Below, piece after piece: positions 93-7,142 of a DNA stretch of 64,000 nt. A model generated the notes under the pieces. That model ran no database searches and was not told where the DNA came from. It worked only from the letters and a program-made list of their open reading frames with translations. A program made the translations under genes and the position numbers. The stretch lies in assembly GCA_965215015.1 (NCBI GenBank), contig OZ244042.1, forward strand, positions 2,496,001-2,560,000, read 5' to 3'. Numbering within the stretch: position 1 is the stretch's first letter; the number at the start of each line of letters is the position of its first letter. This DNA is from Candidatus Poribacteria bacterium. Its GTDB lineage: Bacteria; Poribacteria; WGA-4E; PCPOR2b.

Positions 93-881
93 TTATCCGT
101 ATCGTCCTTCGATATAATCCGCTGTTTTTGAGTTCTCAGGTGTCAGGAATAAATCCGCAGTGTAGCTGTGCTCGATAATCTCACCGAGCAGCATGAAGAT
201 ACACTCATCACTCACACGGCGCGCTTGCGCCATATTATGCGTAACAATTAGAATGGTATAATGCCCGGCAAGCTCCAACATCAACTCTTCAACAGCCCGT
301 GTTCCTTTGGCGTCGAGGGCAGAACACGGTTCGTCCATCAAAATTACTCGCGGTTTCAGCGGCAGCAGCCGAGCTATGCACAACTTTTGCTGCTGTTCGA
401 GCTGTAAAGTCGTCGCCTTCACCTTTAGTTGATCTTTCAAATCGTCCCAAAGAAAAACCTCCCTTAACGCTGTTTCAACAATCTCGTCAGTTTCCGCCCT
501 CTTCCTTATACCATATCCGGAGTGGACGCGCAGACCGAAGATAATATTTTCGTAGATAGAGATTGGCAAGGGATTTGGACGCTGAAACACCATACCGACA
601 TTTTTTCGCAGTTCAGGCAGTGAAACATCTGAATCGTAGATATTTTTACCGAGGATTTGAACTTTACCGGTCGTCGTGACGTTGCCGTAGCGTTCGTTCA
701 CACGGTTGAAACAACGCAGCAACGTGGTCTTGCCGCACCCGGAGGGACCAATGAGCCCAGTTATTAAACCATCAACAATATTCACACTCACGTTGATAAG
801 TGCCTGAAAATCACCGTACCACAGGTTAAGTTGATGGGTCTCAATGCTGTAGCTTTTGCTGTGTTTCTTATCTGTCCTCAT
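93..881 (-). CDS. pstB: Phosphate ABC transporter ATPase PstB (degenerate signature motif)
   Basis: Walker A GPSGCGKT, GMVFQRPNP, Walker B ILMDEP, VTHN, C-terminal YIEGRYG typical of PstB; LSGGQ replaced by LQLEQ. Confidence 0.93.
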   Translation of the reverse strand: MRTDKKHSKSYSIETHQLNLWYGDFQALINVSVNIVDGLITGLIGPSGCGKTTLLRCFNRVNERYGNVTTTGKVQILGKNIYDSDVSLPELRKNVGMVFQRPNPLPISIYENIIFGLRVHSGYGIRKRAETDEIVETALREVFLWDDLKDQLKVKATTLQLEQQQKLCIARLLPLKPRVILMDEPCSALDAKGTRAVEELMLELAGHYTILIVTHNMAQARRVSDECIFMLLGEIIEHSYTADLFLTPENSKTADYIEGRYG

Positions 882-1651
882 CCGAAGTTTCCATTCACGT
901 AGTCGTAGGTTAGCCTGTTCGCCGGTGAATCAGAGAAGATAATATCGTTATCATCAATTTCGATTAGCTCGCTCTCAAATATAAAAGCAGTGCGGTCTGC
1001 CAAACGACGCGCCTGTTGAACCAAATTGGTAACGAGAATGATAGTGATTTGGGAGCATAATTCTTTGAGGATGTCCTCGATTCGCATTGTCGTCACCGGA
1101 TCAACGGCAATCGAAAATTCGTCGAGGCAGAGGATTTCGGGTTGGTGTGAGAGAGCGCGGGCGATAGTCAAGCGCTGCTGCTGTCCCCCTGACAGCTTCG
1201 TACCAAGACTATTGAGCCGGTCTTTAACCTCATCCCAAAGTGCTGCCTGTTGCAGACAACGCTCAACAAGTTCATCTAACTCACTTCGTCTGCGGATGCC
1301 CGCCGTCCGGGGAGCGAAAGCAACATTATCGTAAATAGACATGGGTAAGCCGACCGGCAGCGGAAAGACCATCCCAATACGTCGGCGCAGCTGGTTGACG
1401 TTTTTGATGCTCTTCACGTCTGTGCCATCAATTTTCACTGAACCACTGACCTCTGCACTTGGCTCGAATTCAATCGTACGGTTAATTGTTTTCAGCAACG
1501 TTGTTTTGCCTGATTGTGCAGGACCGATAATGCCCAGTATTTCATTCTCGTATATATTGAAAGAAATTCCTTTAAGGGCTTCCATCCCGTTGTATCGAAC
1601 AGTGAGATCAGCGATTTCAATTTTCTTTGTCGAGTTAGATATCTTTGCCAA
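878..1651 (-). CDS. pstB: Phosphate ABC transporter ATPase PstB (degenerate Walker A, Q-loop and H-switch)
   Basis: AALWDEVKDRL, LSGGQQQRL, YVNGNFG; Walker A GPAQSGKT, Q-loop VFP, H-switch VTN; overlaps the next pstB by 4 nt. Confidence 0.92.
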   Translation of the reverse strand: MAKISNSTKKIEIADLTVRYNGMEALKGISFNIYENEILGIIGPAQSGKTTLLKTINRTIEFEPSAEVSGSVKIDGTDVKSIKNVNQLRRRIGMVFPLPVGLPMSIYDNVAFAPRTAGIRRRSELDELVERCLQQAALWDEVKDRLNSLGTKLSGGQQQRLTIARALSHQPEILCLDEFSIAVDPVTTMRIEDILKELCSQITIILVTNLVQQARRLADRTAFIFESELIEIDDNDIIFSDSPANRLTYDYVNGNFG

Positions 1652-1724: not shown

Positions 1725-2666
1725 CTACCACCGCTTCCGAGACCGCAGGTACACGCGCAACACAATCGCTAACGCGTTCACCATCAGCACGGCACCCAAA
1801 AGCACAACGGCTGTGCCATACTCTAAGGCTTCGGGAACGCCCGGAACTTGGGTCGAAAGTTGGTACAGGTGCATCGAAAGTGCCATAAATCGATCAAACA
1901 GACTATAGGCAAAAACATCCCCTTCAGAGATGGCCTTAAAAAATACTGCGCCGGTAAACATAATTGGCGCAGTCTCGCCCGCTGCTCGGGACACCTGTAA
2001 AATTACTCCCGTCAATATACCGCTGATTGAATTCGGCAAGACGATGCCACGAATCGTCTGCCACCGCGTTGCGCCGGTATTCCAACAGGCTTCCCGAAAT
2101 GCCATTGGAACAGCACCAAGTGCTTCTTTCGTGCTTGCGATGATAACCGGCAAGGTCATAATTGCCAACGTGAGCGAAGCGGCCAAAACCGAACGCCCCA
2201 TCTTTGCAAAATACACAAAAGCACCCACGCCAAAAAGGGCGTGAACGATACTCGGCACACCGGCGAGATTGACTACCGCAAGGTTAATTATGCGCGTGAA
2301 CCAACTTTCGCGGGCGTATTCGTTCAGGTAGACCGCAGCTAACACACCGATCGGCGCGGAAACAAGCAGCGAAATGATTACAATGTAAATCGTTCCAAGC
2401 AGCGGTGCCCATATACCACCGGCTCTCATCCCCTTTGCAGGGTTCGTAAAAAGGAACTCCAGAGACAAAATCGGTGACGCCTTAACAAAGAGATATACAA
2501 CGATGAGAACAAGCGGCAATATTATCAACAGCGTCATCACGAAGAAGATGCCCCGTGCGATATTCTCCGTCAGCTGTTTTTTACGACTCCGCTCGGTTGC
2601 GGTAAACATCAATTGAGGTGCGGCGGTTTCTGGAGAGGTGGGGGAGGAATTTATATCTGTTACCAT
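1725..2666 (-). CDS. pstA: Phosphate ABC transporter permease PstA
   Basis: AVYLNEYA, NLAGVPSIV, RAAGETAP motifs; position in the operon. Confidence 0.95.
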   Translation of the reverse strand: MVTDINSSPTSPETAAPQLMFTATERSRKKQLTENIARGIFFVMTLLIILPLVLIVVYLFVKASPILSLEFLFTNPAKGMRAGGIWAPLLGTIYIVIISLLVSAPIGVLAAVYLNEYARESWFTRIINLAVVNLAGVPSIVHALFGVGAFVYFAKMGRSVLAASLTLAIMTLPVIIASTKEALGAVPMAFREACWNTGATRWQTIRGIVLPNSISGILTGVILQVSRAAGETAPIMFTGAVFFKAISEGDVFAYSLFDRFMALSMHLYQLSTQVPGVPEALEYGTAVVLLGAVLMVNALAIVLRVYLRSRKRW

Positions 2667-2685: not shown

Positions 2686-3594
2686 CTATGCCTTTTCGCG
2701 GATGCCTTTAATCACAAGGTCAGTGACAAAGTTCACAATAAATGTAATTGAAAACAACAAAACACCGATGATAAACAATACACTATAGTGATCACTTCCC
2801 TCTGCTGCCTCACCTAATTCTGCTGCAATCGTGGCGGTCAGGGTGCGAACAGAATCGAAAGGACTAGTCGGCAGGTTCACCGCATGACCTGTTGTCATCA
2901 GTACTGCCATGGTTTCACCGACAGCACGACCAACGCCCAGTAGCACCGCTGCGAGTAATCCATTCTTCGCTGTGGGCAACAACACACGATAAATTACCTG
3001 CCATCGCGTCGCGCCGAGTGCTTCAGCCGCCTCTCGATACGAATCCGGCACAGCTTTGAGCGCGTCCTCACCGATAGAGACAATAATGGGAACACTCATC
3101 AGGGCCAGAATGAGGCCACCGTTTAGCATCGTCAAGCCAATCGGCACGTTGAATAGCTCGATAATCAGTGCGTTCATCACCGTCAAGCCGATGAACCCCC
3201 ACACGACAGACGGAATCGCCGCGAGTAACTCGATGACGATTTTGAGTATCTCCTTCAGTTTTGGACCACAAAATTCAGACACGAAGATAGCTGCCCCAAG
3301 CCCAAACGGCACAGCAATAATCATCGCCAAGGCAGTCACGCTAAACGTACCTGCGATTAATGCCAATACACCGTAACGTTTGTTATTCAGAGAGGTGGGA
3401 TACCATTCGGGGCTCGTGAGAAACTCAACGATATCCAATCCACCGAAGAAAAAACCCATCCCTTCGCGGAAGACGAAAAAAAATATACCGAAGACAAAGA
3501 TGATTGCGCTGATACCACACAGGCGAATGATTCCTTCGATAACTGGCTCACACCAACGTTCCAGTTGGTAAAAAATGTTCACGATTGTTCGCAT
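2686..3594 (-). CDS. pstC: Phosphate ABC transporter permease PstC
   Basis: ELLAAIPSVV, EAAEALGATRW, RAVGETMAV motifs. Confidence 0.95.
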   Translation of the reverse strand: MRTIVNIFYQLERWCEPVIEGIIRLCGISAIIFVFGIFFFVFREGMGFFFGGLDIVEFLTSPEWYPTSLNNKRYGVLALIAGTFSVTALAMIIAVPFGLGAAIFVSEFCGPKLKEILKIVIELLAAIPSVVWGFIGLTVMNALIIELFNVPIGLTMLNGGLILALMSVPIIVSIGEDALKAVPDSYREAAEALGATRWQVIYRVLLPTAKNGLLAAVLLGVGRAVGETMAVLMTTGHAVNLPTSPFDSVRTLTATIAAELGEAAEGSDHYSVLFIIGVLLFSITFIVNFVTDLVIKGIREKA

Positions 3595-3652: not shown

Positions 3653-4561
3653 TCATTTCTGTCCGACGGGGACGTAACCCGTTTTCTCAACAATCCCCTG
3701 TCCCGCTGGCGAAAAGATCCAATCTAGGTAAGACTGTTCCTGCGGTTCTGGGGTTCCGAGCGAATACATATACAAGGGCCTTGCGATTGGATACGTGCCA
3801 TCAAGTACGCCTTGGGCAGTAGGACCAGAGGCGGTATCACCGGCGGTTTTGGCAATCTTAAGCATCTTCACCTCTTCCGTGACATACCCCATGCCGCTAT
3901 AACCAATTGCACACGGCGTATGGGCGATGAGTTCAACGACATCCTTGGAGCCGTGTAAATCTCTTGAACCGAGTTTATAATCGCGATTCTTGCCGAGAAT
4001 TGCCGCGCGGAAATAGACGAATGTCCCAGAATTTGATTGGCGGCTCACCCGGATGATCTCGTCACTAGCACACCTGCTATTATCGATGCCGAGCTGCGAC
4101 CATTCAGTTATGTCTCCGCCTTCTCCGTAGATATCAGCAAGTTGCTCTATGGAGATTTCAGCGAGTGGGTTGTCCTTGTGGACGTAAACAGCAAGCGCAT
4201 CGTACCCAACGATAAACTCTTTTGATGCTTCGCCGGTATTCTGTTTCACCCGTTCACTCTCCTCTGGGGTCATTTGACGGCTACAATTTGCGATGTCTAC
4301 CGTGCCGCTAATCAGGGCAGCGATACCGGTTCCTGAACCACCACCGGATACTTCAATGGACACATTCGGCTCGACTGTAGCATACTCCTCTGCCCATGCC
4401 TGTGCAAGATTGACCATCGTATCAGAACCCGCGTTCTGAATCACGGACTTCTCCGTTGTGTTACCCCCACTCTTTTCACCCGCCTCATCTTTCTTTGTAC
4501 ATCCGTTTGAAAATAAACAGAACGCTACCGCAACGATAGCGCACAATACTTTATTAAACAT
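3653..4561 (-). CDS. pstS: Phosphate-binding lipoprotein PstS
   Basis: AGSDTMV, GGGSGTGIAAL, RQSNSGT, YPIARPLYMY; lipobox SNGC; start set at ATG 4561 behind an AAGGAG RBS. Confidence 0.93.
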   Translation of the reverse strand: MFNKVLCAIVAVAFCLFSNGCTKKDEAGEKSGGNTTEKSVIQNAGSDTMVNLAQAWAEEYATVEPNVSIEVSGGGSGTGIAALISGTVDIANCSRQMTPEESERVKQNTGEASKEFIVGYDALAVYVHKDNPLAEISIEQLADIYGEGGDITEWSQLGIDNSRCASDEIIRVSRQSNSGTFVYFRAAILGKNRDYKLGSRDLHGSKDVVELIAHTPCAIGYSGMGYVTEEVKMLKIAKTAGDTASGPTAQGVLDGTYPIARPLYMYSLGTPEPQEQSYLDWIFSPAGQGIVEKTGYVPVGQK

Positions 4562-4568
4562 CAGTTTC

Positions 4569-5681
4569 CTACTCCTTCTCAACATCATCACCGAGAATTG
4601 CTTGAGTCAGTTCTCGGAGGTGTGTTTCTAAAAATTGAAATGTTTTTTGGTATGCAGCTTGAATTTCCGCTGCAGTTCCTTCAAGTTTTGATGGATCGGG
4701 CACTTCCCAGCTAATACGAACTGGTCTCGAGGGCAACGATGGGAGTGCTCTCTCCGCTTCCTCACAGAGCGATACAATGATTGCATAATCTTTGAGATCT
4801 AAAATCTGGTTTAAATATTTGGACCTCTGACCAGAAATATCAATCCCCTTTTCCGCCATGAATTGCACGGTTTTTGGATCCAGCGGCTGGGATGCCACGC
4901 CGGCACTGCTAAACAGTATCCTATCTGATTCGAGCGCATTGCCGATACCGACTGCCATCTGACCTCGGCACGCATCGTGCTCGGCAACGAAAAGCACGCG
5001 CAACACCTGTTGATAGTTATGTCTTAAATCTTCACCGGTACACATATACAAGACTTCTTCGCAAATATTGCTTGCCTGATTTGCCACGCGCTCCAAGCAA
5101 CTGACAATCGTCACCAATGGTGCTAGTGCCTCTGAGGGCAATTCGTTCTTGATATGTAATTGGATTAAATCACGATGAATTTCATAGCGCAGGTTGTCTA
5201 TGGCTCGTTCTTTTTCCCTTTCCCTTGTTGCCTTCGCCAACTCAGCATCGCCTTCAGTGAAGGCTTGCAAAGCATTACGAAAGAACGAAATTGCAAGGTA
5301 GGCAATGTCGCTGAGCCTGGGATAGGAAGCTTGCACCCCCAGATCGCTGACAGTCAAAAATCGCCTAGCAATCGCTTTCGCATAATCACCGACACGCTCC
5401 AATCCGGTGTTGATTTTGATGACCGAATAGACAAAGCGCATTTGACTCGCGACTGGCAGATGCTTAATCAAAAATCTCTGGCAAAGTGATTCTAAGGTCT
5501 CCTCTAATTCATCGATATGCCGATCCCTTAAGATCACCGCATAAGCCAACTGCCGAGCATTATCCTCAATCGCACCCAGACAAGTCTCTAACGCTTTTTC
5601 AACCAATCTGCCCATCTCAATTACATTGCTGCGAATTAAATCAATGTCCTGCTGCATATTTTCTTCTAAGCGAGATTGCAT
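4569..5681 (-). CDS. phoU: PhoU fused to a C-terminal ArsC/LMW-PTP-like domain
   Basis: Two PhoU repeats (LERVGDYA, LERVANQASNICEEV), then VLFVAEHDACRGQMA...SAGV...MAEKGIDISGQRSK...WEVPDP; start at ATG 5681 after GGAGG. Confidence 0.88.
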   Translation of the reverse strand: MQSRLEENMQQDIDLIRSNVIEMGRLVEKALETCLGAIEDNARQLAYAVILRDRHIDELEETLESLCQRFLIKHLPVASQMRFVYSVIKINTGLERVGDYAKAIARRFLTVSDLGVQASYPRLSDIAYLAISFFRNALQAFTEGDAELAKATREREKERAIDNLRYEIHRDLIQLHIKNELPSEALAPLVTIVSCLERVANQASNICEEVLYMCTGEDLRHNYQQVLRVLFVAEHDACRGQMAVGIGNALESDRILFSSAGVASQPLDPKTVQFMAEKGIDISGQRSKYLNQILDLKDYAIIVSLCEEAERALPSLPSRPVRISWEVPDPSKLEGTAAEIQAAYQKTFQFLETHLRELTQAILGDDVEKE

Positions 5682-5778
5682 GGCGTGCCCCCTCCAAATT
5701 TTGTCATATTCCAACGTTCGTCATGATACATGGTAGTAGATCATAACTGAGGGACAAAGATAAATAAGACATCCATTG

Positions 5779-6816
5779 CTAGAACGTAAAGAATGCTGTC
5801 AAACGCGGCATAATCGTTGCGTCAGGTTTGGTGCCGTTATCAGGTTCATCGTAAAAAACAAAGACGAGATTGGGCATGATATGGAACGCCTCAATTGGTG
5901 TCCAATCCAACCCAACAAGAATCATATTCGGTGCTGCTATATCATCAAAAGGGATATAAGAAATGGCCTTCCCAGAGGGATTCGGATCGAACAGTCGATC
6001 AAACCGAGCGAAAGCCCACACCTTCTTCTCGATCAATTGTGCTGCACCGAACACCGAGCCCCCTAAAATATTAAGGTCGCTCTTCTGCCGCGTTTGATTG
6101 ACAAGCTGAACACCGATCCGAAATTGCTCCCGTTGATAGCCGAGAAGCCCTTGTAATGTGTACCATCTGCCCCGATCTACCGCATTTTCCAAATCAGCAT
6201 ATCCTTCAACGATAATGCCTCTAACAGGCTTGGCTGCGAGCGAAAAAGCGACCTTCTTGTTCTTATCGATTTCTGCCTTTGTGCTCATGCCATTTGCGAA
6301 TATCAGATGATAGCTGATTTTCTTTGATTTGTCGACATCGCCTTGTAGTGCTACACCAAAGTCGGAGCCGTTCCCCATTTTATGAAGGGCAACTAGCGTT
6401 TTTGCAATAGAGCGATAGCCCCATACCTTGTCAACATTGTTCCAAGTTGGGTTGTTGGATAACCCCAAATAAATATTCGTCCGCCACTTGGGTCGCTTCC
6501 ACCTCAGATAGCCGTTTTTGAGAAACGGTTCGATTTTTGAGCTTGTCTGGCGGGCTGTGGGAAATGATTGTCCATTCATCTCCAGACGAAATCGCACGGA
6601 AAAATCTTCTGACAGGTCCTTGTCGTAATTAAAGTAGATGCGCCGATACTGAAATCCATTTCGATTCTTAAGTTCAGCGTCATAAGCCTTCAGCACGTGG
6701 TAGTAATCAGTAAAAAAATAACCGCTAATCCTACCCTCATTTCCCCACAAAACAGAAGGGTTACTCAACAATAGACATATAACAAGCAAGATGCTGTGAC
6801 GAAAATATTTTCTCAT
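5779..6816 (-). CDS. Outer-membrane porin, probably phosphate-selective
   Basis: Signal peptide, GFQYRRIYFNY...RFRLE motif, alternating beta-strands, C-terminal Phe; directly upstream of phoU-pst. Confidence 0.7.
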   Translation of the reverse strand: MRKYFRHSILLVICLLLSNPSVLWGNEGRISGYFFTDYYHVLKAYDAELKNRNGFQYRRIYFNYDKDLSEDFSVRFRLEMNGQSFPTARQTSSKIEPFLKNGYLRWKRPKWRTNIYLGLSNNPTWNNVDKVWGYRSIAKTLVALHKMGNGSDFGVALQGDVDKSKKISYHLIFANGMSTKAEIDKNKKVAFSLAAKPVRGIIVEGYADLENAVDRGRWYTLQGLLGYQREQFRIGVQLVNQTRQKSDLNILGGSVFGAAQLIEKKVWAFARFDRLFDPNPSGKAISYIPFDDIAAPNMILVGLDWTPIEAFHIMPNLVFVFYDEPDNGTKPDATIMPRLTAFFTF

Positions 6817-7142
6817 AAAGCCTCCGTTCGTAACATTTTTGTTCAATGACATTTTGGTGAATTACTTAACATCGATCAACTTAAATATACCATAAATGCC
6901 ACAAATTGTCACAAAAAAAGCGCGTTATGAAACATGTCTCTATGAAAAGAGGACACGACTGGGACAAGGCGGCAATTCATAACGCGTCCGATGGAGGTTA
7001 TTGTTTTGCCAGTTTTAGACCCTGATTAGTTCAGAGATGCTCATAAATAGGCCCTGATGGGTGTACCCCTCAACGGGTAGGGGTTGGGCGAGGAGACCTC
7101 AACCGAATCGAGCGATGACACGCATTGAATAATGAGCACCCC

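Follow-up and report, generated by a model that had tools for sequence, protein, structure and literature searches.

The window analysed here is a stretch of 64,000 nucleotides from the genome of a Candidatus Poribacteria bacterium (assembly GCA_965215015.1, contig OZ244042.1, positions 2,496,001 to 2,560,000). Its minus strand carries a phosphate uptake (pst) operon whose genes, assigned from the open reading frames (ORFs) of the window and from family profiles, are arranged in the order phoU-fusion, pstS, pstC, pstA, pstB-deg, pstB-sig (Table 1). The last two genes code for PstB-type ATP-binding cassette (ABC) ATPases, termed PstB-deg (B1) and PstB-sig (B2), which depart from the PstB consensus in complementary ways and are the main subject of this report.

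Table 1. Features of the pst locus. Positions are those of the window; fractions refer to 80 B1 sequences and 76 near-full-length B2 sequences from related loci.
Feature	Position	Strand	Description
pstB-deg (B1)	878..1651	-	PstB paralogue, 257 amino acids, TTG start
B1 A-loop Y20	1592-1594	-	from translation; 79/80
B1 Walker A GPAQSGKT	1502..1525	-	altered-site side; G43, P44 and K49 80/80; A45 and Q46 77/80
B1 Q-loop region MVFPLPVGLP	1343..1372	-	P97 (1361-1363) in place of Gln; P97 80/80
B1 signature LSGGQ	1181..1195	-	consensus; 80/80
B1 Walker B and D-loop ILCLDEFSIAVDP	1097-1135	-	D177-E178 80/80
B1 H-switch LVTNLV, N209	1025..1027	-	N209 in place of His; 80/80
pstB-sig (B2)	93..881	-	PstB paralogue, 262 amino acids
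B2 Walker A GPSGCGKT	726..749	-	consensus-site side; 76/76 except for T/S at the last position
B2 Q-loop MVFQRP, Q100	582-584	-	76/76
B2 signature LQLEQ	393..407	-	faces the B1 P-loop; 74/76, others LSLDQ, LQLDQ
B2 Walker B and D-loop ILMDEPCSALDA	309-344	-	consensus
B2 H-switch IVTHN, H215	237..239	-	76/76
ATGA overlap, B1 stop and B2 start	878..881	-	read from the sequence
pstA	1725..2666	-	membrane subunit; TIGR00974, 256.1 bits (cut-off 193.45)
pstC	2686..3594	-	membrane subunit; TIGR02138, 288.9 bits (cut-off 196.45)
pstS	3653..4591	-	phosphate-binding protein; TIGR02136, 239.9 bits (cut-off 206.6)
phoU-fusion	4569..5714	-	PhoU fused to an ArsC/low-molecular-weight-phosphatase-like domain without the nucleophile Cys; TIGR02135, 149.1 bits (residues 19-229); PF01451 (residues 240-369)
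Porin-like ORF	5779..6852	-	357 amino acids, signal-like N-terminus, operon head

The best family of both ATPases is TIGR00972, the PstB equivalog, yet both score below its cut-off of 343.2 bits (277.9 bits for B1, 322.5 bits for B2), while they pass PF00005, the ABC ATPase domain, with 89.0 and 97.8 bits, respectively (gathering threshold 25). The genetic context of a PstB equivalog is present, with pstS, pstC and pstA, each above its own cut-off, located directly upstream on the same strand. The source genome (5.94 Mb, single contig, 98% complete) contains one pstSCA operon and one pstA above the cut-off, as indicated by profile search, and no PstB above the TIGR00972 cut-off was found in it, whereas 13 of 14 control genomes have one. 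The third-best PstB-like match in the genome (232.9 bits, L003) was rejected as GlnQ-like; it adjoins an amino-acid permease. The B1/B2 pair is the sole PstB of the source genome and serves its only high-affinity phosphate importer. The overlap of the pstB-deg stop with the pstB-sig start suggests translational coupling of the two genes; in many related loci, judged by eye and not counted (e.g. L014, L017, L055 and L074), the B2 start likewise falls where the B1 match ends.

Translation confirmed every motif coordinate of the two proteins, and with them the positions and motif substitutions that a first-pass annotation of this DNA had reported for both ORFs. B1 aligns with the solved Escherichia coli PstB chain 9k3x_C over residues 2-257 of either protein with one gap (219 bits, E 5.5e-64); because of this single-gap alignment, its motif positions can be regarded as homologous to those of E. 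coli PstB. The Walker A sequence GPAQSGKT of B1 still satisfies the pattern GxxxxGK[ST]. The deviation of the Q-loop goes beyond the exchange of Gln for Pro, as the entire stretch, which normally contacts the coupling helix of the membrane subunit, is rewritten, and P97-P103 are invariant in an alignment of 21 sequences. The catalytic Walker B Glu is intact, but the Pro following it is replaced by Phe (DEF for DEP), and the D-loop reads IAVD instead of SALD. The rewritten Q-loop stretch, the intact Walker B Glu and the changed D-loop are absent from the first-pass annotation. This Glu aligns with E179 of E. coli PstB, the residue mutated for cryo-electron microscopy (PMC12976172). In B2, K51 is found in all 76 near-full-length sequences.

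According to a review of degenerate ABC sites, a single nucleotide site comprises Walker A, Walker B and the A-, Q- and H-loops of one domain, together with the signature of the partner (PMC7756269). When the motifs of B1 and B2 are mapped onto this scheme, the consensus site is made up of Walker A, Walker B, the Q-loop Gln and the H-switch His of B2 and LSGGQ of B1, and the altered site of GPAQSGKT, Pro in place of the Q-loop Gln and N209 of B1 and LQLEQ of B2. The proposal of the first-pass annotation that all substitutions fall on the same composite site agrees with this mapping, with a caveat concerning the B1 D-loop (see below). A hypothetical B2 homodimer would have LQLEQ in both sites, and in a B1 homodimer neither site would have the Gln or the switch His. 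Because each homodimer would carry defects at both sites, only a mixed dimer yields one all-consensus site, and the strict retention of LSGGQ in B1 makes sense only as completing a site with B2. We consider it probable that B1 and B2 form an obligate heterodimer with one consensus and one altered site, which drives the only PstSCA importer of the organism. The first-pass annotation had arrived at the same idea; it is supported by the conservation and co-occurrence of the substitutions in orthologues, by the pair being the sole PstB, by the replacement of canonical PstB across the phylum sample, and by the existence of a second family of such pairs.

Scanning one genome per prokaryote species by pattern revealed at least 582 stretches that encode a relative, the best 80 of which were inspected. 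These loci carry the labels of 12 phyla, i.e., Poribacteria (32), Verrucomicrobiota (14), Myxococcota (5), Acidobacteriota (5), Thermodesulfobacteriota (4), Fibrobacterota (4) and six further phyla (9 loci); seven are unlabelled. P97, N209, K49, D177-E178, LSGGQ and a Thr or Ser in Walker A occur in all 80 B1 sequences, and identity to the window is at least 67% for both subunits (range 67-95% across loci). The alignment of homologue pairs which the first-pass annotation had proposed as a check gave co-occurrence of the substitutions, with the B1 positions conserved in 77-80 of 80 sequences and LQLEQ in 74 of 76. A B2-type ORF directly follows B1 in 78 of the 80 loci; the contigs of the other two end within about 0.5 kb. 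Walker A is GPAQSGK[TS] in 119 of the best 120 database homologues of B1 (76-95% identity), the remaining one having GPGQSGKT, and the Q-loop Pro, LSGGQ, LDEFSIA[VI]DP and VTNL are found in all those having the motif region. Since the altered residues vary no more than the consensus ones, they represent a selected state rather than decay.

The relation of the pair to canonical PstB was analyzed in 151 genomes of the source phylum, with B1 called at 72% identity or more and canonical PstB defined by the TIGR00972 cut-off. B1 is present in 123 genomes including the source, none of which has a PstB above the cut-off. Another 21 genomes, which belong to other genera, have canonical PstB without B1, and seven have neither at these thresholds. 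In this sample, B1/B2 and canonical PstB are mutually exclusive, the pair replacing the canonical protein. Outside Poribacteria, four of five pair-bearing genomes checked (G151, G152, G154 and G155, of loci L083, L068, L090 and L069) also hold a canonical PstB above the cut-off; G152 has two adjacent canonical copies.

Searching 50%-identity representatives with B1 mostly retrieved canonical PstBs and fragments, besides some PstBs with GPAGxGKT, Ala or Ser in the Q-loop and VTNN, and others with an LSAEQ or LTEEQ signature. An unspecific pattern scan of metagenomes, aimed at this second family, provided a sample of 80 loci. In 71 of them, which serve as control, a lone PstB has an unaltered Q-loop, H-switch and signature, while nine loci (L098, L110, L159, L171, L172, L094, L129, L141 and L162) contain the altered P-loop type. 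Five of these nine altered-type genes are paired with a second pstB, whose product combines consensus catalytic motifs with an altered signature (LTEEQ, LPMDQ, LSGEQ, LAPEQ or LSLGQ). All five altered-type subunits in pairs are devoid of the Q-loop Gln, and the switch His is replaced by Asn in four of them, L172 keeping the His (IVPHS). As to the four unpaired loci, three contigs end too soon, and the partner in L162 was not established. A second, looser PstB family with the same complementary pattern is present in metagenomes. In one subgroup of it, Asp or Ala stands at the Q-loop position and the switch His is intact (VPHN or VPHS); in L094, a gene of this subgroup is directly followed by phoU, and no second pstB was seen on that short contig. 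An acidic residue recurs at position 4 of the altered signatures, namely in LQLEQ of B2 and in LTEEQ, LAPEQ, LSGEQ and LPMDQ of the partners in L098, L110, L159 and L171. The degenerate signature LNVEQ of yeast Pdr5 likewise has Glu at position 4 (PMC7756269), which hints at a convergent solution.

A quick maximum-likelihood tree was calculated from 89 rows with a GlnQ-like outgroup, leaving out the Firmicute PstB1/PstB2 proteins; support values are from the Shimodaira-Hasegawa-like approximate likelihood ratio test (SH-aLRT) only. All altered-P-loop subunits fell into one clade with a support of 99. The B1 family of the window was recovered with a support of 100 on a stem of 1.0 changes per site; the B2 family, also with a support of 100 and with a stem of 0.91, joined six of the eight signature-altered partners (support 92). 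Within the B1 and B2 families of the window, branches are short. This topology points to one old duplication from which two specialised lineages would have arisen; in the window's family, a burst of change would then have given way to near-stasis.

As for the working mode of the pair, ATP hydrolysis at the consensus site, formed by the catalytic side of B2 and LSGGQ of B1, would power the transport cycle. For the altered site, the A-loop Tyr, the Lys and Thr of Walker A and the Walker B Asp-Glu, all kept in B1, make nucleotide binding most likely; hydrolysis there is most likely slow or absent. The site would serve as a latch or in an allosteric role, holding the dimer together, as in heterodimeric ABC exporters, the degenerate sites of which are described as holding nucleotide and keeping the dimer associated (PMC3971661, PMC7756269). 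That one active site can suffice is stated for the histidine importer HisP2MQJ (PMC3971661), and single-site catalysis is what we infer from the motifs of the B1/B2 pair. Rewriting of the Q-loop groove of PstB-deg implies that each PstB would sit on a fixed membrane partner, either PstA or PstC, which would fix the position of the active site.

Several observations weigh against a heterodimer with a single working site or limit the evidence for it. The D-loop IAVD of B1 projects into the consensus site, which hence is not strictly canonical. The altered site might still hydrolyse some ATP, as B1 has both the Lys of Walker A and the catalytic Glu of Walker B; in most degenerate exporter sites, by contrast, the Walker B Glu is replaced (PMC7756269). 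The same source reports that MRP1 still transported much like the wild type when the H-loop His of its consensus site was exchanged for Asn or Gln, so the His-to-Asn substitution alone is no proof of inactivity. The bulky, acidic LQLEQ together with the exchange of the P-loop Gly46 for Gln could prevent nucleotide binding or closure altogether. The conservation counts across genomes cover the 80 best among at least 582 matching stretches, nearly all records are metagenome-assembled genomes and may be mislabelled, and the quick tree, with SH-aLRT support only, leaves the sister relation of the two clades unsettled. Prediction of a complex of B1 and B2 with two ATP and two Mg resulted in a score of 0.51 (best of three controls 0.00, no interface given), with at least 75% of the contacts agreeing between runs and a predicted local distance difference test value (pLDDT) of the partner of at least 85. 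While the pass mark for scores of this type is reached by 116 of 157 solved complexes and by two of 215 mismatched pairs, scores of 0.60 or lower among the passes are confined to 18 of the 157 solved complexes and both passing mismatches. Support for the B1-B2 complex from this prediction is weak; PstB dimers have been solved (9k3x), and likeness to them may explain the score.

The PhoU fusion, which is the first gene of the conserved cassette, is the only PhoU in the source genome. Its C-terminal domain aligns to the Bacillus subtilis arsenate reductase 1jl3, but the first P-loop Cys is replaced by Ala and the last redox Cys by Leu; we take both to be catalytic cysteines of 1jl3. The first P-loop position is occupied by a residue other than Cys, mostly Asp, in all 37 fused homologues. 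The ArsC-like domain is likely a disabled enzyme, and it may bind an anion. Of the 80 loci, 37 have the fusion upstream of pstS, comprising 35 of 35 informative loci with labels other than Poribacteria and two of 32 Poribacteria-labelled ones; the count of informative loci excludes ten cut contigs, two loci with little upstream DNA, and L019, in which the pstS match lies downstream. None of 80 control loci (mostly with canonical PstB) has the fusion, while 62 of them have a plain PhoU. Fusion and pair travel as a cassette, yet the pair can exist alone, being present without the fusion in 30 Poribacteria-labelled loci.

The association with this PhoU protein bears on the most serious rival explanation, which retains the heterodimer but regards the altered site as a regulatory sensor of ADP, phosphate, another nucleotide or the PhoU fusion itself, gating import or signalling the phosphate status; the first-pass annotation had already suggested a regulatory site or a docking point for PhoU. 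In favour of a sensor, the altered residues are near-invariant and do not drift (Q46 in 77/80, P97 and N209 in 80/80, LQLEQ in 74/76); a structural latch, however, would predict equally strict conservation. An acidic residue at signature position 4 in four of the five second-family pairs, as well as in LSAEQ and LTEEQ of P0168 and P0189, is also in line with a sensor. The fusion of PhoU to a pseudo-phosphatase in 35 of 35 informative non-Poribacteria-labelled loci, as compared to none of 80 controls, fits as well, as does the E. coli PhoU-PstB interaction reported by Gardner et al. 2014 (via PMC12976172), but the 30 Poribacteria-labelled loci mentioned above retain the pair without the fusion. 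Taken together, we regard a sensor as a possibility of rather low probability. Slightly less probable still is an elaborate version, in which the Glu of LQLEQ and the P-loop Gln would reshape the gamma-phosphate position of the altered pocket, turning it into a cytoplasmic sensor that reads ADP, phosphate or a phosphorylated ligand and, together with the PhoU fusion, throttles uptake at phosphate sufficiency, with one ATP spent per cycle.

The substitutions in the altered site could also mean that it never holds nucleotide, in which case protein contacts would hold the dimer together and PstB-deg would be a structural pseudo-ATPase donating LSGGQ. Gln in place of Gly46 within the P-loop and Leu and Glu in place of two signature glycines, which normally touch the gamma-phosphate (PMC7756269), are compatible with this explanation. 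Conservation of Y20 in 79, and of the Lys, the Thr/Ser and the Asp-Glu in all 80 B1 sequences, would be unexpected for a pocket that is never occupied, and we deem an empty site unlikely. That both sites are catalytically active, the pair being divergent in sequence but functionally symmetric, appears very improbable: both subunits do have the Walker B Glu and the Walker A Lys, and His-to-Asn was tolerated in MRP1 (PMC7756269), but the Q-loop Gln, the switch His and the signature Ser-Gly-Gly of one site are changed jointly (in 74-80 of 76-80 sequences), whereas the other site stays strictly consensus. Least credible is a separation of the two PstBs, with one homodimer driving Pst and the other protein acting as a regulator or being a decaying copy, because, although non-overlapping functions are reported for the adjacent pstB1 and pstB2 of Enterococcus faecalis (PMC12096839), those two proteins are both fully canonical and so represent a different case, neither homodimer of the pair described here has a consensus site, its genes overlap by ATGA, and decay is not apparent, the frames being open at 67-95% identity across the labels of 12 phyla.

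Besides the ATPases and the PhoU fusion, the cassette and its surroundings show some further features. Outside the window's own genus, PstC and PstA of the cassette share 62-82% identity with the window proteins (L012-L091), across phylum labels, whereas the values in the same comparison are lower for PstS (49-71%) and PhoU (37-55%). The high likeness of PstC and PstA suggests either strong constraint or transfer of the cassette between phyla. The porin-like ORF at the head of the operon did not match any Pfam or NCBIfam family, but homologues with 43-73% identity occur at the equivalent position in five Poribacteria-labelled loci, and the protein may be a candidate for an outer-membrane phosphate channel. 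In many Poribacteria-labelled genomes (27 of the 80 loci, within L025-L059), a third PstB-like gene is located about 1.5-2 kb downstream of pstB-sig, accompanied by a PstA-like gene and a plain phoU; no such gene downstream of pstB-sig is present in the source genome. The third PstB-like proteins have a GPAN[SC]GK[ST]-like Walker A and an LSxGQQQ[LR]-like signature, no H-switch motif was found in them, and they form a separate clade in the quick tree (stem 1.21).

By descent, the system is closest to E. coli PstSCAB (9k3x, 9k3y, 9k3s; PMC12976172), with which it shares PstS, PstC, PstA, PstB-type ATPases and PhoU; by working principle, it is closest to heterodimeric exporters with a degenerate site. 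In the E. coli transporter, one PstB is located on PstA and one on PstC (PMC12976172). The E. coli PstBs are identical and form two consensus sites, in contrast to the two unlike subunits below the equivalog cut-off and the one altered site found here; unlike in E. coli, phoU is the first gene of the operon of the window and is fused to a second domain. Unlike domains, deviations gathered on one composite site and an altered signature of the partner are features shared with heterodimeric ABC exporters and channels, such as TM287/288, TAP1/2, MRP1, CFTR and Pdr5, as characterized in passages of two reviews (PMC3971661, PMC7756269). In the exporters, however, the ATPase is fused to the membrane domain, and the usual change is that of the Walker B Glu (PMC7756269), whereas the system of the window is a type I importer with free ATPases; its altered site retains the Walker B Glu and departs from the consensus at the Q-loop Gln, the switch His and three signature positions. 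Two adjacent pstB genes within a pst operon also occur in Firmicutes, i.e., in E. faecalis (PMC12096839) and in B. subtilis (PMC11466899), the PstBA and PstBB proteins of the latter having been modelled as a heterodimer (PMC11466899). The E. faecalis PstB1 and PstB2 proteins are described as canonical (PMC12096839), unlike the deviating pair of the window. In RbsA and NupO of B. subtilis, one of the two ATP sites of an importer has been called degenerate (PMC11466899); these proteins differ in belonging to another importer class, in having both domains in one polypeptide and in the loss of the Walker A Lys, and they are neither Pst components nor the products of two complementary genes.

A description of a degenerate or asymmetric PstB pair was not found in open-access papers and bioRxiv full text, and the importer passages of the review of degenerate sites mention none in importers; the closest paper found is that on the two canonical PstBs of E. 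faecalis (PMC12096839). The remark of the first-pass annotation that the design is familiar from exporters but not from Pst systems is consistent with this literature; a design with one working site is known from drug exporters and apparently undescribed for phosphate importers. What the window adds is the exclusion of canonical PstB within a phylum, a tree with a single origin along with a looser second family, and a counted link to the PhoU-fusion cassette. In annotation, the two subunits, both below the PstB equivalog cut-off, are each named plainly "phosphate ABC transporter ATP-binding protein".

How many ATP are used per cycle by binding-protein-dependent ABC importers, and whether both sites are needed, is an old question that has been approached mostly via engineered mutants. 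The B1/B2 system would offer a natural case, under the labels of 12 phyla, of a type I importer whose substrate is known and whose architecture has been solved, with one site first remodelled and then kept constant; as the pair is the sole Pst system in at least one phylum, it must work. Three matters become directly open to testing: the energisation of transport by a single site, what a non-consensus site does in an importer, and where the active site is fixed with respect to PstA and PstC. The B1/B2 importer is of solid interest for the ABC transporter field. The strict link to the PhoU fusion moreover suggests an undescribed regulatory arrangement of phosphate uptake in many uncultured lineages.

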